Below are positions 179-33,367 of a stretch of 64,000 bases of DNA, in pieces. Source of the stretch: Candidatus Amesbacteria bacterium RIFCSPLOWO2_01_FULL_48_25. GTDB taxonomy: Bacteria > Patescibacteriota > Microgenomatia > CAZETR01 > Amesbacteraceae. Every line of letters begins with the position of its first letter. The first letter of the stretch is position 1. The stretch is taken from contig MEXN01000007.1 of assembly GCA_001773695.1 (NCBI GenBank), positions 47,388 to 111,387 on the forward strand, written 5' to 3'. A program made the translations under genes and the position numbers. The notes below the pieces were generated by a model. It was given only the letters and a program-made list of their open reading frames with translations. It was not told where the DNA came from and did no database searches.

Positions 179-1216
179 TTACTCTTCTTCAATTTCCCCT
201 ACTTGTTTAGGCAGGGGGGTTTTACTGGATTTGACGGATTTCCAGATTGCGTCTTCGAGCTGTTTGGCAGCTTTATGATTTTCTTTGAGATAAGAGCGGG
301 CGGCCTCGCGGCCCTGGCCGATAATGGCCTCAGCAAAGTAAATGAAGGCACCTTTTTTGGTAAGGACGCCTAATTCCAGTCCGACGTCAATTAAGCCGCC
401 CTCTCTGGAGATGCCGCCGTCATTTAGAATATCGAACTCGGCGACTCTAAAGGGTGGGGCGACCTTGTTTTTGACGATTCTGGCCCGGTGGCGGGAACCG
501 ATAGCAAGGTCACCGTCTTTTAGGGTTTCAATTTTCCGGACGTCGATGCGGACGGAGGCATAAAATTTGAGCGCCATACCACCAGGGGTAGTTTCGGGGT
601 TGCCGAACATGACCCCGATCTTCATCCGAAGCTGGTTCGTAAAAATGACGACGGTTTTGCTTTTGGAAATGGCGCCGGTAATTTTCCTTAGAGCCTGGGA
701 CATAAGCCGGGCCTGGACGCCCATGACGCTGTCTCCCATTTCGCCTTCGATTTCTGATCGGGGGACGAGGGCAGCTACTGAGTCGATAACGATAACGTCG
801 ATGGCCCCGGAACGAATGAGGGTTTCGACAATTTCTAAGGCTTGCTCGCCGGTATCGGGTTGGGAAATGTATAAATTGTCCAGGTCAACGCCAATTGCCT
901 CTGCTCGGGAGGGATCGAGAGCGTGCTCGGCGTCGATAAAAGCGGCGGTGCCACCAGCTTTTTGAGCCTGGGCGATACAGTGCAAGGCAATTGTGGTTTT
1001 ACCGGAAGCTTCGGGACCGTAAATTTCGGTAATGCGGCCGCGGGGAAATCCACCGATGCCCAGGGCAATATCAATAGCAATTGAACCCGTAGAAATAACC
1101 TCGACATTAAATTTGTCCCCTTTTTCGCCAAACTTCATGATCGAACCTTTGCCAAACTGTTTTTCAATCTGTTCCATGGCGATTTTAATCGCCTGAAGTT
1201 TTTGGTCTAATGCCAT
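179..1216 (-). CDS. recA: Recombinase RecA
   Basis: 345 aa. P-loop GPEASGKTT and the RecA signature [10 protein letters not shown] are present. The whole length is RecA-like. Confidence 0.97.
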
Positions 1217-5996: not shown

Positions 5997-8900
5997 TTAT
6001 TGTACCAATTTGGCTCGCTCGGGGCTAGTTGGTATAAGCCGGCCAATAATGACGTTTTCTTTGAGTCCAATTAAAGGATCGATCCGGCCTTCGATGGCCG
6101 CGTCGGCCAATTGGGAGGTGGTTTCGATAAACGAGGCGGAGGATAACCAGGATCCGGTTTTGAGGGCGGCCCGGGTGATGCCCAAAACTACAACCTGGGC
6201 AGTGGCTGGTTCGCCGCCGGCGGCTAAAATACGGGCATTTTCTACCTCGAAGCCAGTGCGGTCGATAATATCTCCGGGCAGAAGAGTAGTATCTCCTTGG
6301 GAGAGGACCCGAACCCGGTCGCTCATCTTTCTGACAATTACTTCGAAATGTTTGTCGTGGATGGGCACGCCCTGGGACTCGTATACCAATTGAATCTCTT
6401 CGATGAGGTATTCCTGGGCACCCCTGAGGCCACGAATTTCCAATACTTCTTTAATATCTAATGAACCGGTGGCAAGTTGAGTTCCTGAGTCGACCAGATC
6501 TCCATCGGCTACTTTAAGCTCGGCAGTAAGGGGAATAATATATTCGCGTTCGTCGACAGGTTTGACTGAAGTATTTCGAATCCTAACCTTGTAACCGGAA
6601 TCGGTCTGGGTGACCTCGACCCGCCCGGAAATTTCAGCCAGAGGAGCTACTAATTTGGGAGTCCGGGCTTCGAACAGTTCTTCGATTCTGGGTAGCCCTT
6701 GGGTGACGTCGATGCTGCCTACGGACAGACCACCCCGTTTACCGTGTAAGGTCATTTGTGTTCCCGGCTCGCCGATACTTTGGGCGGCAATGACGCCAAC
6801 CGGGTCGCCAATTGATGCTTGGGCCATGGCACCTAATTGCCAGCTATAGCAGGTAGCGCAAAGGCCGTATTTGGCGTTACATGTTAAAGGCGAGCGAACA
6901 ATTACTTCATTTACTGACTCGGTGTTGATCTGAGATACCTTGTCCTCGTCAAGAACCGTCCCTGCCGGAATGAGGACTTTTTTAGACTTGGGAGAAACTA
7001 TGTCGGAAGCCGTAACGCGGCCAAAAATCCGGGCCGGGAAAGACTTGGCCCTACGGCCGGACCGGAAAATGGAGAGACCGGAAGTGGTACCGCAGTCTTC
7101 CCGGCGGATTATGGCGTCGTGGGCTACGTCTACCAAGCGACGGGTGAGATATCCGGCGTCGGCAGTACGAATAGCAGTGTCGGACAAGCCCTTGCGTTCG
7201 CCACGAGCGGCAGAAACATATTCGAAAGTGGAAAATCCCTCCCGATAGTTACTTTTTAGAGGCAGGTCGACGATCCGGCCCAAGGGGTCAACCACCAGGC
7301 CGCGCATGGCGGAGAGTTGCTTGACCTGTTCACGGGAAACCTTACCCACCTGAGCATCCACCATGAGATGAATGGGGTTAGTTTGATCAATTAATTTCCA
7401 GGTATTGTCGGCCAATATATCCGTGGTTTCCAGCCAGGTTCCTTGGGTGAGGCGTTTTTTCTCCTCGGCGGTAATTAACCCTAATGAAAAGTTTTGTTCG
7501 ATTTCAGCAACTTTGCGATTGGCCCCCGAAATAATCTCGGTTTTGTCCGGCGAAATAACACAGTCGGTAATGCTGACCGAAAGACCGGCTATGGTTCCGG
7601 CCCAGAAACCTAAAGATTTAATATCGTCGATCAGCTTGACGATTACTCCGGGATCGGTCTCGCCGAAGAGGCGGAAAGCCTTGTTGAAAATGGCCACGAC
7701 GGTGGAACGGCGGACGGGTTCGTTTACAAAACGCAGAGGTTCGGGTAGAACCTCGTTAAAGAGCAAGCGGCCAACAGTGGTTTCCACTAAGTGACCCTCT
7801 TGACGGACAAGAACTAGTTGGCGCAATTTGAGAATACCGGTGTGGTAGGCCAGAATGGCTTCCGCGTCTGAGGCCATGGGGGTGGAAGCACTTGGAATTT
7901 GGGAATCTACCGAAGTGAGGTAGTAATTGCCCAAAGCCATTTCTTTGGTGGAAGGAATAGTGATAGGCGTACCGTCGGCCGGTTTTCGAAGATTATTTTG
8001 AGGCATCATGGTGGCAATCACTTCGGCGATAGCCCCCTGGCTTAAAGGAATATGAACGGCCATTTGATCACCGTCGAAATCGGCGTTAAAACCGGGACAA
8101 ACACAGGGGTGGATGCGGATGGCCGAACCCTCAATCAAAATGGGATAAAAGGCCTGGATAGATAACTTGTGCAGGGTAGGGGCCCGATTTAGTAGCACCG
8201 GGTGGTCGCGGGTGATGTCTTCCAAAATATCAAAAACTTCGGGGGGGCGGGTTTCTAGCAAATTCTTGGCTGATTTGACGTTTGGCGCCAGACCCTTAAC
8301 AATCATTTGGCGTAAGACAAACGGCTTGAACATTTCCAGGGCCATGTCCTTGGGGAGTCCACATTGATTGATCTTGAGCTCCGGGCCGACGACGATGACC
8401 GAACGGCCGGAGTAGTCCACCCGCTTGCCCAAAAGGTTTTGACGGAAGCGGCCCTGCTTGCCCCGCAACATGTCCGAAAGAGATTTGGAATGAGCGCTGG
8501 TCGGCAGACGAGTGACCCGAGTGTGTTGGGAAGAGTCGATTAGAGCATCGACGGCTTCCTGGAGCATGCGTTTTTCATTTCTCAAGATTATTTCCGGGGC
8601 TCCCAAATCAATGAGGTGCTTAAGGCGGTTGTTGCGATTTATGACTCGGCGATATAGATCGTTTAGGTCACTGGTCGCAAAGCGGCCCCCGGAGAGCTGA
8701 ACCATGGGACGCAGGTCGGGAGGAATAACAGGTAAGATCTTGATTATCATCCAGACGGGATCGATGCTGGCGCGGCGCAAGCCGTCCACGACTCGAAGGC
8801 GTTTGGTGGCTTTAATGTGGCGTTGTCCGGTAGAATTGGCTACTTCCTCCCTAAGGGTGGCTGAAAGGCTGCCGAGATCTAGAGTTCTGATAACATCCAA

Positions 8901-15498: not shown

Positions 15499-17574
15499 TT
15501 ATGGAGTCTGGATCGAGACGGTGATATGTCCAGGGAGACGAGGGAGAAAGACAATGGGGTCCGGCAAGGGTAAGCTATAAGTAATTTGGGCACCAGTGAC
15601 GCCGGGATATGAATTGAGGTGGTTTCTGGCCCAGGCGATATTTTTGCCCGCGATCTGAGAGACAATTTGGCTAGAGTCGACTTGAGGCGTAAACCGGGCA
15701 GAAACATTAGTAAATACCGTATTTTCAGACCCGGTAGAACCACGCACTGAAAAACGATAATTTGTCAACTGCCCCAGTTGATAGTTATCGGGGATTTGAT
15801 CTTGCAACTTTTGCTGGACAAGCTCTTCCAGGTTGGATCTGGATACGACCGGGCTTTGGGCTTTAAGAGTGAGCTTGTAGGTGATTTCATTGGCTTCATC
15901 TCCTGTTTTGTGATTTAATTCTTCAGATGTGGTTTGGCTTGTGAAGGTATCCGGGACCAAGATCTGGTCGGGGGTTAATTCTTCGGTAATTTTGGCTTGA
16001 AGAGCTTCGCGAAGTTGGGACATGAGGGTGGATTTGAGCTGGGAAATATCCTCCTGAGCCACAACCCGAGCTTCCCTACTTGAGCCGCCCGAGAGGGCAG
16101 CCTCATTTTTGGCCACCACGTCCAGCTGAGGATAAGTGCCAACACGAAACTCAGTGCCGGCTGTAAGGTTGCCATCAGAGCCAATTTGAGAAGCGGTGAT
16201 CTTGACTGTGACACGGCCTGGTTGGTAGGAATTGGGGTCGGCGGTACCTGAGGCAGAGGCTACCAAGACGCTTGAGTCGGTTGTGAATTTTAGGCTCGTC
16301 GGGGAAGTCAGCAGCGTGCCCGCGGGTAAGTTTTTGACGGTGCTGGTGCCATTTATTATGGTGACAGATCCGGAAGCTGGCTCGCCAACTACTTTGGATC
16401 CGGTGGTAGGAGCGGATTTGGAATCGGATGCCGAGGTTTGTACAAAACTGCCAGTTGTATCGAATTCGGTTGACAAATCCAGGGGAGAAATTTGCAATTC
16501 GACCTTGGCGGATGGTAGATAAAGCGTAGCTAAAACGAGGGCGGCCAAAATGGTAATTATGCCAATCCCCCAAAAAACTAGCCCGAGACGGGGGAGTGTT
16601 GGCCAAGATATGGTAAATGATGGTAATTTGAATTGAGGAAGTTTTAGCTTTGGCAAAGTAAATCGCTTTGATGCGGGGGAGAGCTCATTTTTGGGAGGAG
16701 GGGGAATGGAGGGAGAAGGCGGGGAATTTGGGTTCGGAGCATTTACTCCGGGAGAAAATCCAAGTTGATCTGGAGAAATTTCTAGCGAAGTTTCTTCTCC
16801 CGTGGTGATTAGACCTATGGCTTGGGCGACTTCGGAACCACCTGCCAGGGCAATGGCCCGAATTACAAAATCTTGGGGTAGGGACTCCACCTTGGGAAAA
16901 TGCAGAAATGGCAATCTGGTTTGGGGGGATTGCCAGGGATGAGAGAGTAATTGTTGGCGAATGCTTTCTAGATCCTGGCTGGAATTGTAAAGCAAAATCC
17001 GAGAGGGGAGCATGTCTGTGGGTAAGAGTCGGGAAATGCCTTCGATAACATCGTCTGTGAGCTTGGGGCTGCGACGGACAGTGTGAGTTCCGGTAATCTT
17101 ACCCAAACGAACCAATGAGACTTCCAGATATCCGGCCCAGAAACCCAAGAGGATGGCCGTGGGGGGGGCATTTTCCTGGCTTTGCAAAAAACGGACGGTG
17201 GCTTCGGGGATAACCACATAACCAACTGGTTTGAGAGCCAGTTTGTCAAAAAGCGGACGCAGTAAATTTACTTTGGCGGGATGGATTTTTTCCGTTTCCA
17301 ACCAATCCGGTAATAGTCCTAAAATGATTTTTTCGGGTTGGGTTTTACCCTGGGGATCGAGGTGGTTGCCTGCGTCTGACAGGCTTTGATCGCTGGCTGT
17401 GACCAAGCTATCAGCAGACGAATCGTCCCAGGCGACGCTGCTTCCTACGGCTATAACTTGAGGCCGATTATTGATGACTGCCCAGACGGCACCTTGCACT
17501 TGGCCGTGGCCAATCTGCAAGGCGAAGAGGTATTCGCGTTTGGGATTGGGGTGATTTAAGAAAGGCAGGGTCAT
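15499..17574 (-). CDS. Large membrane-anchored protein. Cytoplasmic N-domain with a tentative actin/FtsA/PilM-like phosphate-1 motif, Pro-rich linker, one TM segment, Ser/Thr-rich extracytoplasmic domain.
   Basis: 691 aa. The motif LFALQIGHGQVQGAVWAV resembles an ASKHA phosphate-1 motif. The linker is PNPNSPPSPSIPPPP. The TM segment is LGLVFWGIGIITILAALVLATLYL. Confidence 0.5.
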   Translation of the reverse strand: MTLPFLNHPNPKREYLFALQIGHGQVQGAVWAVINNRPQVIAVGSSVAWDDSSADSLVTASDQSLSDAGNHLDPQGKTQPEKIILGLLPDWLETEKIHPAKVNLLRPLFDKLALKPVGYVVIPEATVRFLQSQENAPPTAILLGFWAGYLEVSLVRLGKITGTHTVRRSPKLTDDVIEGISRLLPTDMLPSRILLYNSSQDLESIRQQLLSHPWQSPQTRLPFLHFPKVESLPQDFVIRAIALAGGSEVAQAIGLITTGEETSLEISPDQLGFSPGVNAPNPNSPPSPSIPPPPKNELSPASKRFTLPKLKLPQFKLPSFTISWPTLPRLGLVFWGIGIITILAALVLATLYLPSAKVELQISPLDLSTEFDTTGSFVQTSASDSKSAPTTGSKVVGEPASGSVTIINGTSTVKNLPAGTLLTSPTSLKFTTDSSVLVASASGTADPNSYQPGRVTVKITASQIGSDGNLTAGTEFRVGTYPQLDVVAKNEAALSGGSSREARVVAQEDISQLKSTLMSQLREALQAKITEELTPDQILVPDTFTSQTTSEELNHKTGDEANEITYKLTLKAQSPVVSRSNLEELVQQKLQDQIPDNYQLGQLTNYRFSVRGSTGSENTVFTNVSARFTPQVDSSQIVSQIAGKNIAWARNHLNSYPGVTGAQITYSLPLPDPIVFLPRLPGHITVSIQTP

Positions 17575-30465: not shown

Positions 30466-30564
30466 TGATGCAATTCCGAAGCGTTCCAGAAGTCTGAAGA
30501 AGAGTGAAAAACTGTTCTTCGCACCTCTTGAACTGCTTCGCTTTGTAGGTGGATTATAACAGAG

Positions 30565-30834
30565 TTATTTAGATAATCCAAGTTTTTTAACTAAGGCTTG
30601 ATATCTTTTAAGATCTTTTTTCTGCAGGTAATACAACAGTCGGCGGCGTTTACTGACCATACTAATGAGGCCTCTTCGAGAATGATTGTCTTTTTTGTGG
30701 GCTTTTAAATGCTCGGAAAGCTTGACGATCTTTTCGGTTAGAAGAGCCACCTGGACCTCAGGAGATCCAGTGTCCCCCGCCCCCTGGGCATATTTTTGGA
30801 TGATGTCGAGTTTGGCGGTAGTAGGTAGAGCCAT
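30565..30834 (-). CDS. rpsO: 30S ribosomal protein S15
   Basis: 89 aa. [25 protein letters not shown] motif. Confidence 0.95.
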
Positions 30835-30946
30835 ATGGCATTAAAAAATTAAGAGATAGGGCGAAAGAGAGTATCACAACTGAACCGTCTTTCGTTAATT
30901 CTCTTGTTTAGGATGGAGCTATTATACAACTAAATATAAGATATTT

Positions 30947-31171
30947 CTAGGACTTGGTTTCAAAAGGGGCTTTTAGGGCTTGGTAAAGTCTATCGAATTC
31001 CCCGTCAGTTAGATAGCCAAGTGCACGTCGGAGTTGAAGATTAACAATAAAGGGGGGTGAAAGAGTGGCTAATGCAGCGGATCTTACTTCGGATGTGGAA
31101 AAAACTTTAAGAATGTTATTTCTAAAACCTTGAATGTCAGCTAAAGTTTGGGTTTCCAATTGTTGTGTCAT
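30947..31171 (-). CDS. Hypothetical protein
   Basis: 74-aa ORF. A duplicated 3' fragment of the nrnA-like gene lies just upstream of it. Confidence 0.35.
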   Translation of the reverse strand: MTQQLETQTLADIQGFRNNILKVFSTSEVRSAALATLSPPFIVNLQLRRALGYLTDGEFDRLYQALKAPFETKS

Positions 31172-31190
31172 ACTTTAATGAATTGAGCTA

Positions 31191-31219
31191 TTGTAGCATG
31201 GGGCCGCGGTAGATTTTGG
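31191..31219 (-). repeat. Orphan duplicate of the last 7 codons plus stop of the nrnA-like gene (the intact tail is at 32465-32493), 28 of 29 nt identical
   Basis: On the minus strand both copies encode KIYRGPMLQ*. Confidence 0.85.
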
Positions 31220-31262
31220 TCGGTTTGACATAAGTCTATATGCAGTGTAGTATCCGGCTTAA

Positions 31263-31718
31263 ATGTTGGATAGATTGAAAACGGAGGACACACGGCTCAA
31301 AGAGGCAATTGCTTTGTACGAGCCGGTGAGGGTTTCCTTCGCGAGGCTTATGGAACAAGAGGGAAAGAGGATAGACCTGGGGTGGGGACATACTCTTATT
31401 ACTGGTGCTGGGAGCAGATATGTGTGGGAGTGTTCAGGGGTTCAAGTGGGTGGTGTGAAAATATCAATGGAGACGAGTGACGATGATAGGTTTGGTGGAG
31501 ATTTAAGAAGTGCGACACTTCACGTTGTGGTGTCTAGGGAATGGGCTAGTGAGAAGTTTGATCTGGAACCGACTGGGCATGTTGGAAGCGGGAGACTAAA
31601 CTCTAGGAGTGTGGGGAAGATGGCGGAAGATTTGAAAGAGCTGGCGGATGAAATTAACCAATACTTAAATCCTCGCAAAAACATTCATAGGAATTATGGA
31701 GGGGCAGGGTCGAGGTAG
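31263..31718 (+). CDS. Hypothetical protein
   Basis: 151-aa ORF on the opposite strand inside a minus-strand block. No family recognised. Confidence 0.4.
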   Translation: MLDRLKTEDTRLKEAIALYEPVRVSFARLMEQEGKRIDLGWGHTLITGAGSRYVWECSGVQVGGVKISMETSDDDRFGGDLRSATLHVVVSREWASEKFDLEPTGHVGSGRLNSRSVGKMAEDLKELADEINQYLNPRKNIHRNYGGAGSR

Positions 31719-31726
31719 ATCTAGCT

Positions 31727-31785
31727 AAAGTTCTTTTGCTAGATATTGCACCAGACATATACTCTTCCTGTGGGCGGATCTTCTC
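31727..31785 (-). repeat. Degraded duplicate of the 3' end of the 76-aa gene (intact copy 32232-32408). It carries an internal ~114-nt deletion bounded by a CTAGAT microhomology.
   Basis: An 18-nt block and a 41-nt block are identical to the 32232-32249 and 32368-32408 segments of the intact copy. Confidence 0.85.
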
Positions 31786-31834
31786 AACCAGCTTTCGTTA
31801 GTTCTCTTGGACAGGTGTGATTGTATCACCAAAG

Positions 31835-32179
31835 CTAAGCTTTGAAAAGATTCTTTACAAACACCTCTACTCTTTCGCTGGGTTCATTCGCTCGCGCGCA
31901 GTGAATTAGGGCGGCTGCAGCAAGAGCTTCCAGTTCTCCACTTATATTTTCTCGCATTATAGTTACTGAGTCGTACCCTTCTTGTGGATGATTTATAAGG
32001 AAATTAATACCGGTTACATAGGCGACAAAAGCAACTTCAACGTCAGGCATACCTTTAATTTTTTCTGCAATTTGTAATTGGTCGGGTTTGTCGTACCCAG
32101 CTAATTTAGCCATGTCTTCAAGATCTTGGGCAGTGACACGGATTTCTTCTTTTCTTGCGGGCCTACCTTTTCGTCTCAT
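31835..32179 (-). CDS. Hypothetical protein
   Basis: 114-aa ORF, flanked by a degraded copy of the 3' end of the neighbouring 76-aa gene. Confidence 0.4.
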   Translation of the reverse strand: MRRKGRPARKEEIRVTAQDLEDMAKLAGYDKPDQLQIAEKIKGMPDVEVAFVAYVTGINFLINHPQEGYDSVTIMRENISGELEALAAAALIHCARANEPSERVEVFVKNLFKA

Positions 32180-32229
32180 TGCGCAATTATAGGATATTTT
32201 TGGTTGTTGTCAATTATTGCAACCTGGAG

Positions 32230-32460
32230 TCAAAGTTCTTTTGCTAGATCTGGATAGATTTTCGTGAGAAATGGACAGTTCTTACAATCGTTGGTCTTTG
32301 GTTCATTCACCCAATATATTTCATCAGGAGTCAGGTGCCGGTTTATGCAAAGTGAGGCAGTGGCTAGATTGCACCAGACATATACTCTTCCTGTGGGCGG
32401 ATCTTCTCCAAAAAGTTCAGCGTAAGGGAACTTGTCCTTTTCAAAAACGAGCTGGCTCAT
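32230..32460 (-). CDS. Hypothetical small Cys-containing protein (possible Zn-binding)
   Basis: Start placed at Met (MSQLVFEK...), one nt after the stop of the upstream gene. Cys in WCNLATASLC and DCKNC. Confidence 0.4.
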   Translation of the reverse strand: MSQLVFEKDKFPYAELFGEDPPTGRVYVWCNLATASLCINRHLTPDEIYWVNEPKTNDCKNCPFLTKIYPDLAKEL

Positions 32461-32461
32461 T

Positions 32462-33367
32462 TTATTGGAGCATGGGGCCGCGGTAGATTTTGGGGGCGTA
32501 CCAGTCGGCGGGGGCGGTAGTAGTGGGGCCGGGAGTGTCTTTGAATTCGGCAACGGCTTCGGCAGTGCCCGGCGAGGTGGGAATGGAGCCGGCTGGGAAA
32601 TCTGCAGCTGAAATGGGCGCTTGCCTGCGGGCGCCACTCTTCATAAGCCGGGCGGCAGTTTCGAAAGTGCCGGCAGAAATGGCGGGGTGGGTGAAATTCT
32701 GGGTAGCGCCTTCTAAGCCTATAAATAGATTGGTGGCGGCATCGGCAGAAAAAGGAAGACTTAAGGATTCTATAATATACGTCGTGACTTCGATTAATGA
32801 AGTGGCGGTAGGGTCATAGAATTGATGGGGGGTGTAGTTTTCGGCTGGGGGGCGGGTGGTAAGAGAGACCAGCTGGCGGTGGGATTGAAGAAGATCGCGA
32901 CTATTTTCGTAAATTTGACCAAGATCCGAAAGACGATCGACTCCGACTAGAAAAATAGTATCGGCTTGGCTTGCTGGAATATATTTGAGTTTTTGATGAT
33001 CAATAAGGGGAGCGTCGGGTTTGGGAGAGACTACCAGGCGCAGTTCCCCGGACTCGATGTGGTAACTGATCTTATCCACGTGCTCGGTCTGTTCGGGAAA
33101 GGAAATAATTAGATTCCTACCTCCAAAATGGGTGGAAACCGAGTCCACTCCAACCAGGCGGTTAAACTCGACCGTCATGGGGTCGGGGCAGCCGACGTGG
33201 GTGGATTTGCCAACTTCGTCGCAAATTAGTTTCAGGGCCAGAGCAGTGGCTACAGCGTCAAGGCTGGGATTTTGGGGAAGCAAAAAGGCCAGGGATTGGG
33301 AAGAGGTGAGCAGACTCTTTAGTTGGGTAGTATCGGGATCGGCCATGAAATTAAACCTCGACGGCAA
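32462..33367 (-). CDS. DHH-family protein, NrnA-like but catalytically degenerate, with a disordered C-terminus in place of DHHA1
   Basis: Collinear with NrnA. It retains the conserved block NLFIGLEGATQNFTHP. The DHH position reads YHIE and the DxD motif is not conserved. The gene sits in the infB-(rbfA)-nrnA syntenic slot. Confidence 0.5.
   Translation of the reverse strand: MPSRFNFMADPDTTQLKSLLTSSQSLAFLLPQNPSLDAVATALALKLICDEVGKSTHVGCPDPMTVEFNRLVGVDSVSTHFGGRNLIISFPEQTEHVDKISYHIESGELRLVVSPKPDAPLIDHQKLKYIPASQADTIFLVGVDRLSDLGQIYENSRDLLQSHRQLVSLTTRPPAENYTPHQFYDPTATSLIEVTTYIIESLSLPFSADAATNLFIGLEGATQNFTHPAISAGTFETAARLMKSGARRQAPISAADFPAGSIPTSPGTAEAVAEFKDTPGPTTTAPADWYAPKIYRGPMLQ

Follow-up and report, generated by a model that had tools for sequence, protein, structure and literature searches.

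Probable stacking of three versions of the nrnA-like/rpsO interval in a core translation cluster of Candidatus Amesbacteria

Structure of the island

Contig MEXN01000007.1 belongs to an uncultured groundwater member of Candidatus Amesbacteria (candidate phyla radiation, CPR; Microgenomates). Between an nrnA-like gene and rpsO, the gene for ribosomal protein S15, it carries an island of small orphan genes and short direct repeats, which we analysed within a window of 64 kb (below, the window always means this whole stretch of DNA). Our results suggest that the island probably consists of three head-to-tail, partly overlapping versions of one and the same nrnA-like/rpsO interval. These versions would have been stacked by additive recombination that was homologous on one side and illegitimate on the other.

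On the minus strand, the genes between 33367 and 30565 follow each other in the order nrnA-like, 76-aa, 114-aa, 151-aa (on the opposite strand), 74-aa and rpsO. Segment 1 runs from 32493 to 31783 and contains the nrnA tail, the 76-aa gene, the 114-aa gene, and a promoter with the 5' half of the rpsO leader. In segment 2 (31785 to 31220), a hairpin lies between the 3' end of the 76-aa gene and the 151-aa gene, which is convergent with it and has its own promoter; this arrangement is intact in a related locus, L041. Segment 3 (31219 to 30565) contains the last 31 nt of an nrnA-like gene, the 74-aa gene, the promoter, the full leader and rpsO. In each segment the pieces of the flanks are colinear with the canonical interval, and the cargo differs (114-, 151- and 74-aa genes, respectively). 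Single alleles of the kind predicted from such a stack do exist: empty in L039 and L040/L047, nrnA-like followed by the 74-aa gene and rpsO in L042/L043, and nrnA-like followed by convergent 76-like and 151-like genes and rpsO in L041.

A preliminary description of this DNA had listed three direct-repeat pairs, and self-BLAST together with copy counts in the 64 kb places all three where they had been seen. The first pair, D2 (31189-31219 and 32463-32493), is 31 nt long, identical at 30 of 31 positions, and has an exact core of 24 nt. The second comes in two parts, D1 (31745-31785 and 32368-32408; 41/41 identical) and D5 (31727-31744 and 32232-32249; 18/18 identical); the 41 nt of D1 are the longest repeat. 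The third, D3 (30880-30906 and 31783-31809), is identical at 23 of 27 positions, including an 18-mer with one mismatch (self-BLAST E 0.001). Both D2 and D1/D5 are present in two copies, and D3 occurs exactly twice, where in each case about zero copies are expected. All of these repeats are conserved pieces of the locus: D2 corresponds to the tail of the nrnA-like gene, D3 to the promoter and the 5' half of the leader, and D1/D5 to the 3' end of the 76-aa gene. They would persist because versions were added rather than swapped.

One further similarity was seen. D4 links the promoter region of the 114-aa gene (32194-32220) to rpsO codons 6-14 (30790-30816), at 78% over 27 nt (self-BLAST E 0.12); it could be due to chance or be another relic of an rpsO 5' end.

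Table 1. Coordinates of the features of the island and of its two flanking genes.
Feature	Position	Strand	Remarks
nrnA-like gene	32462..33367	-	Putative divergent member of the DHH/NrnA family, called as 294-301 aa; conserved left flank of the hot spot
D2b, functional nrnA-like 3' end	32463..32493	-	KIYRGPMLQ*, stop TAA
76-aa Cys-rich gene	32230..32460	-	Begins 1 nt past the nrnA-like stop; holds D1b (32368-32408) and D5b (32232-32249)
Promoter of the 114-aa gene	32186..32213	-	Perfect sigma-70-type TTGACA-16-TATAAT, 12/12 matches
114-aa orphan gene	31835..32179	-	Segment 1 cargo
D3b, orphan rpsO promoter and 5' half of leader	31783..31833	-	Promoter TGATACAAT; 'GGTTGAGAAGATC' subtype (also written 'GGTTGrGAAGAyC'), truncated
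Segment 1/2 junction	31777..31785	-	Putative 9-nt microhomology GAGAAGATC, leader fused to 76-aa gene
Orphan 3' fragment of the 76-aa gene (D1a + D5a)	31727..31785	-	59/59 identical to intact gene, 118-nt internal deletion
Hairpin	31719..31744	.	Between convergent 76-aa fragment and 151-aa gene; 26-nt palindrome, 85%
151-aa gene	31263-31718; with promoter 31225..31718	+	Segment 2 cargo; promoter TTGACA-17-TAGTAT at 31225-31253
D2a, orphan nrnA-like tail	31189..31219	-	Stop TAG; left edge of the putatively imported module
74-aa gene	30947..31171	-	Segment 3 cargo; 78-79% aa identity to the L042/L043 gene between nrnA-like and rpsO
Functional rpsO promoter and structured leader	30835..30946	-	Promoter TGTATAAT; P1 AAGAGA/TCTCTT, P2, variable hairpin; D3a at 30880-30906
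rpsO (S15)	30565..30834	-	Right end of the putatively imported module; 87.5% DNA match stops at its stop codon, 30565

A variable gap across relatives

A profile of nrnA-like homologues led us to 80 metagenomic loci, and exact look-ups added three more; 69 loci contain both the nrnA-like gene and rpsO. In 69 of 69 the nrnA-like gene is followed directly by rpsO and pnp, and rbfA and truB are never found there. The preliminary description had taken the island for a replacement of a canonical infB-rbfA-truB-rpsO region by five small genes. Neither part stands, given that the related loci all read infB, nrnA-like, rpsO, pnp and that the actual insert comprises four genes (76, 114, 151 and 74 aa).

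What varies is the gap itself. It exists in 57 distinct versions of 13-1191 nt, and the gap in the window, with 1627 nt, is the largest. Thirty-four versions measure 210 nt or less and hold promoter and leader only, 14 measure 211-460 nt and hold one small open reading frame (ORF), and nine are longer (up to 1191 nt); the ORFs are mostly unrelated between lineages. The empty site measures about 100 nt (L039, L040/L047), L042 and L043 have the 74-aa gene only, and L041 has a convergent pair of 76-like and 151-like genes. Hence the island is variable, as had been claimed, in that relatives are empty at this place, have only the 74-aa gene, or have the 76-like/151-like pair. We conclude that the nrnA-like/rpsO gap is a variable recombination hot spot in Microgenomates. 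A scan of GTDB species representatives with infB returned only relatives of at most 44% identity, which are useless for synteny.

Three side observations concern this gap. In L046 (1535-1690), only the last ~40 nt of the 74-aa gene are left between nrnA-like and the rpsO promoter, which shows that the hot spot not only gains genes but also loses them by deletion. In L051, L054, L067, L072, L079-L081, L091, L098 and L104, an extra insertion of ~80 nt, which may be a small repeat element, separates the S15 leader from the rpsO start and holds paired hairpins (CCCCTCTTA...TAAGAGGGG, AAACCCCGCAGGGAGGGG). In L041 (1733-2080), the space between the 75-aa gene and the 126-aa gene convergent with it holds two copies of a palindromic element, CCACCTGGAGGGTGG(TC).

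A module that was apparently imported together with rpsO

Evidence for foreign DNA comes from segment 3. Between the left edge of D2a and the stop codon of rpsO (31219-30565), the window is 87.5% identical to L043 over 655 nt, whereas DNA identity to the same locus is 64% in infB/nrnA-like and 69-72% in pnp. These flank values match the distance to every other relative, so that the similarity of segment 3 is incongruent with that of its flanks. At the protein level, identity to L043 is 79% for the 74-aa protein and 94% for S15, against 64% for the nrnA-like protein and 66% for PNPase. S15 is 94-96% identical to its counterparts in L043 and L046 and 80-82% identical to those of other relatives. 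Because of this 87.5% match against 64-72% in the flanking genes, segment 3, including rpsO, appears to have been laterally imported, apparently in place of the rpsO that was there before and of the 3' part of that gene's leader. L043 and L046 are sister lineages (78-80% identity in the flanks), and the module is vertical in their clade. They share it at 84% only, which puts the donor on the L043 branch.

The two copies of the nrnA-like tail tell the same story. D2a ends with CTACAATAG, as is typical of L043/L046, and D2b with CTCCAATAA. Compared with genuine nrnA ends, D2a agrees with that of L046 at 31 of 32 positions and with that of L043 at 31 of 34; the 16-nt spacer and the 74-aa start codon that come after it are the same as those after the nrnA-like end in L043. 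The tail also contains an extended -10-like element, TGCTACAAT, 28 nt upstream of the 74-aa start; this candidate promoter element may explain why the tail travelled with the module. The idea that duplicated gene tails were carried along with incoming segments is therefore correct in part: the tails did travel, but D2a and D3b are orthologous flanks and not target duplications made in situ.

The rpsO leader

Empty sites (L039, L040/L047) reveal the ground plan of the interval: the nrnA-like gene ends in ...PK(I/V)YRGPMLQ*, about 100 nt follow with an extended -10 promoter and the leader, and then comes rpsO. In the window the leader lies at 30849-30906 (minus strand), and some 35 related loci have it too (among them L039 at 7903-7961 and L043 upstream of 1636). 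Its consensus is 5'-AAGAGA-(A)ATTAACGnnAG-hairpin-CTCnCnnnCGCC-nTA-TCTCTT-3', with an outer helix P1 (AAGAGA/TCTCTT), a helix P2 (ACGnnAG/CTnnCG(C)) and a variable apical hairpin. In an alignment of 35 distinct leaders, seven of ten P2 pairs show compensatory changes, and P1 covaries too.

D3a and D3b represent different subtypes of this leader. D3b is most similar to the leader of L044 (44/51), compared with only 23/27 to its own partner D3a, and its subtype is widespread. The subtype of the functional leader D3a is seen only in L042, L043 and L046; it matches the L043 leader at 52 of 57 positions, and the functional promoter/leader region as a whole is 92.9% identical to L043. The functional leader folds at -17.6 kcal/mol (z -3.1). 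The truncated D3b has a fold z of +2.1 and is predicted to be unable to fold.

Autoregulatory mRNA leaders of rpsO have been described (PMC4137082, PMC7247131). Like these, the leader studied here has a conserved, covarying structure in the 5' untranslated region of rpsO, just upstream of the start codon. Unlike them, it matches no Rfam 15 family: a scan of the island gave chance hits only and no leader family at E <= 10. Nor does PMC7247131 list it among its S15 leaders. The Microgenomates rpsO leader is a conserved and apparently undescribed RNA. It is a candidate for a new S15 autoregulatory leader, with putative binding of S15.

The 76-aa fragment and the joints between segments

The orphan fragment of the 76-aa gene lies at the joint between segments 1 and 2. 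A 114-nt deletion bounded by CTAGAT had been proposed for it. Microhomology is indeed found at the edges (the 7-mer GCTAGAT at both), but the net size is 118 nt (177 versus 59 nt). The two D5 copies cease to match exactly at a stop codon, TGA in the intact gene and TAG in the fragment. Next to the fragment follows the hairpin (-13 to -15 kcal/mol, z -2.5 to -2.7). It exists only at the fragment copy, and the last codons of the 76-aa gene form one of its arms.

Via this hairpin the 151-aa gene abuts the orphan fragment and not the intact 76-aa gene, and the arrangement in L041 is the same. L041 encodes a homologue of the 151-aa protein at the same place and in the same orientation (L041_126; 26% identity, E 9e-12), the two share a conserved -35 region in the 151-type promoter, and L041 also has a distant homologue of the 76-aa gene (E 0.002) that is convergent with the 151-type gene. 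Since the fragment has the 151-aa gene next to it, as the 76-like gene of L041 has its counterpart, and terminates in a stop codon, it should mark the original position of the 76-aa gene.

At the joint between segments 1 and 2, GAGAAGATC is common to the 76-aa gene and to the leaders of the same subtype in L078 and L082, and it is these leaders that suggest its role there. At the joint between segments 2 and 3, the promoter region of the 151-aa gene runs into a foreign nrnA-like gene, of which only the last 31 nt are present.

A possible history of the stack

How could such a stack arise? One end of incoming or misaligned DNA would recombine within conserved sequence (the nrnA-like or 76-aa gene, or rpsO), and the other end would be joined illegitimately, at the 9-nt microhomology in the case of the segment 1/2 joint. 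One event would then be an unequal or one-sided recombination between a version with the 76-aa gene, the 114-aa gene and the leader and a version with convergent 76-aa and 151-aa genes. Both parents would come from the same species or even the same chromosome because D1/D5 is identical at 59 of 59 positions. In another event, the L043-type module would have been imported; it would have crossed over homologously in or close to the end of rpsO (3' side) and been joined illegitimately on its left. A later, slippage-type deletion would have removed 118 nt from the orphan 76-aa fragment. The recombination between the 76-aa versions and the L043-type import could have happened in either order. The order of events, the mode of joining (homology-facilitated illegitimate recombination, HFIR, or unequal crossing-over) and entry by natural transformation are all inferred.

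Several points weigh against this history. First, the 59/59 identity of D1/D5 needs a near-identical donor, an in situ duplication or gene conversion, and at least one join may be intragenomic. Second, we found no relative with a segment 1 allele (76-aa gene, 114-aa gene and leader), and the 114-aa gene is an orphan. Third, no microhomology can be demonstrated at the segment 2/3 joint from the joined sequence itself, and the deletion junction in the 76-aa fragment keeps an extra AT. Fourth, among the five assemblies of the species there are no presence/absence variants; all have the same structure. Fifth, our sampling of lineages rests on metagenome contigs, with no close relative among the GTDB species representatives. 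Finally, natural competence in CPR bacteria has been documented for Saccharibacteria only (PMC10187176).

One could also argue that no import was needed at all. The interval would have been duplicated twice in tandem through slipped or unequal recombination, and the copies would have diverged by deletion and gene replacement. The identities of D1/D5 (59/59) and D2 (30/31) are what a recent in situ duplication would leave behind, tandem duplication fits the colinear flank pieces in each segment, and the microhomology at the segment 1/2 joint fits as well. However, the cargo is wholly different between the copies, with no residual similarity, and segment 3 is 87.5% identical to L043 whereas its flanks are only 64-72% identical. 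D3a and D3b, moreover, are different leader subtypes, each closer to other genomes than to the other. A purely intragenomic origin therefore seems unlikely to us, and we prefer a stack of versions that includes import.

Assembly artefacts and integrative elements

Repeats and mixtures of strains can mislead short-read assemblers. Hence, the island might be an assembly artefact, or the contig a chimera of strains that were assembled together. Records of the rpsO protein exist in 67 assembly blocks, and the gene neighbourhood is the same in all 24 of the contigs that we read (24/24). In L001, L002, L003 and L125, which come from four different samples (ENA ERZ27254752, JGI 3300025322, JGI 3300002503 and ENA ERZ28563591), the DNA of the island is 100% identical along the part that was compared. 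A fifth contig, L122 (ERZ4903185), has the structure with nine internal single-nucleotide polymorphisms (SNPs). These assemblies differ in samples and pipelines, and the repeats, at most 41 nt, are below typical read length. An artefact is extremely improbable, and we exclude it because the island is identical across independent assemblies.

As an observation on L122, six of its nine SNPs are packed into 59 nt of the 114-aa gene (31993-32051) and cause three amino-acid changes. This cluster may be a small recombination tract or reflect relaxed or diversifying selection.

Integrative elements often target the 3' ends of genes. It has been suggested for this island that small gene cassettes inserted at gene 3' ends. 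Under site-specific integration of cassettes or of an integrative element, the repeats would be attL and attR, and the integrase would be encoded elsewhere or have been lost. In favour of this idea, gene 3' ends are frequent targets of such elements, and the D2 copies are 31-nt direct repeats of a gene 3' end that flank 1.27 kb of extra DNA. It is nevertheless very unlikely to be true, for the following reasons.

First, the repeats do not behave like att sites. In gene direction their order is D2-D1/D5-D3, D1/D5, D2-D3, which is interleaved and not nested, and D1/D5, D2 and D3 are unrelated to each other in sequence and length. No att core is shared among them at the cassette boundaries. Second, what lies between the D2 copies is itself material of this locus: half a leader, the fragment of the 76-aa gene, and the 151-aa gene, which has its counterpart in L041. 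D2a, for its part, is the orthologous tail of another lineage. Third, the cargo has no relatives on viral contigs and no PHROG or PADLOC match. Fourth, no integrase or transposase was found among the ORFs scanned in the window, in agreement with what had been reported before. Our scan covered the island genes and 30 further ORFs across the 64 kb with Pfam, plus precomputed Pfam annotations within +/-10 kb in L001. The scanned ORFs are housekeeping genes (RecA, RNA polymerase subunits, ribosomal proteins, EF-Tu/G, SecY, DnaK, FtsK and others).

Relation to known systems

The stacked arrangement has parallels elsewhere. HFIR is known from the naturally transformable Streptococcus pneumoniae, Acinetobacter baylyi and Pseudomonas stutzeri (summarised in PMC3240628). 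As there, a one-sided homologous anchor and an illegitimate far joint would add foreign DNA beside conserved genes, and RecA is encoded in the window (179-1216). The difference is that the process is deduced here from sequence scars alone, in an uncultured organism, and that one or more of the joints could be an intragenomic unequal crossover.

A process of the HFIR type is also thought to build orphan arrays at effector-immunity loci of type VI secretion systems (T6SS) and at Rhs loci (PMC5361080). Examples are the effector-immunity orphan arrays of Vibrio cholerae and the C-terminal displacement in Rhs and contact-dependent inhibition (CDI) systems (PMC5361080 and references therein). There, too, incoming versions are added and do not replace the resident ones, no integrase is involved, a conserved upstream region serves as the anchor, and each orphaned 3' end precedes a retained small downstream gene. 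In our island D2a stands before the 74-aa gene, and D1a/D5a abuts the hairpin and the 151-aa gene. There are also differences. The island has no toxin or immunity signature (no Pfam or PADLOC match), what is duplicated is the conserved tail of a putative housekeeping DHH protein and not a variable toxin domain, and the array sits in a core cluster, where one step apparently also swapped the essential rpsO with its leader.

With integron or integrative-element cassettes the island shares small promoter-bearing genes that gather at a single site between short direct repeats. It differs from them in having no integrase and no common recombination site, and its repeats are pieces of neighbouring genes and of the leader, unlike each other and interleaved. 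Hence, the process is known, and the new instance is a core translation cluster of a CPR bacterium with orphan small proteins and an apparently swapped ribosomal gene and leader.

The genomes of CPR bacteria are tiny and rich in lineage-specific small proteins. The scars at this locus would show one route by which small genes build up: lineages exchange versions of a hot spot, which now and then become stacked, and no mobile-element machinery is needed; in one such exchange an essential ribosomal protein gene was apparently carried along with its leader. Repeats of gene ends near core genes need not signal integrases. We can also speculate, with little confidence, that the gap is an integrase-free 'landing pad' across Microgenomates, with the nrnA-like tail/-10 promoter on one side and the S15 leader/rpsO on the other as portable anchors for recombination. 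If that were true, small orphan genes, and even rpsO with its leader, would circulate as promoter-bearing modules between lineages that are ~35% divergent in their DNA.

Cargo, neighbouring genes and further observations

All small genes of the island except the 76-aa gene have a plausible promoter of their own. None of the four proteins has a match in Pfam, PHROGs, PADLOC or NCBIfam, and scans of viral contigs with all four found nothing. Searches of PDB sequences with the 151-, 114- and 76-aa proteins gave no significant match. A word-indexed search with the 76-aa protein finds only the gene itself; distant homologues at the same position in L041, L051 and L079 indicate a small Cys-rich family. 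The 114-aa protein finds only its own cluster among 5.8 billion proteins, and its AlphaFold2 model is unreliable (predicted local distance difference test score, pLDDT, 52). L054 and L069 encode small proteins in the corresponding position to which the 74-aa protein is weakly similar (z 5.8 and 3.0). For the 151-aa protein, a full HMMER search found only the protein itself and a weak, single-blade similarity to FG-GAP repeat proteins, which we rejected as functional evidence.

The island sits within a nusA-infB-rpsO-pnp core cluster, with nusA and infB upstream of the nrnA-like gene and pnp downstream of rpsO. The nrnA-like protein alone has no Pfam match and reaches only E 0.17 with NCBIfam NrnA. 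We found 184 homologues, a few of them with Pfam DHH (PF01368), and the family profile matches NrnA/TM1595 structures at E ~1e-10 over only ~100 residues. Exact look-ups of the 301-aa nrnA-like ORF and of P0123 returned no record.

Two observations concern other parts of the window. The spacer between rpsO and pnp (30466-30564, minus strand) holds a motif, TTCAAGAGGTGCGAAGA...TCTTCAGACTTCTGGAACGCTTCGGA, that is conserved in L044, L046, L047 and L061 and is probably a pnp leader or processing hairpin. L043 does not have it, and there pnp begins 4 nt past rpsO. Farther away, a 691-aa ORF (15499-17574, minus strand) with a weak Baseplate_J-like Pfam match (E 1e-6) adjoins a sortase gene, in a region that otherwise consists of housekeeping genes.

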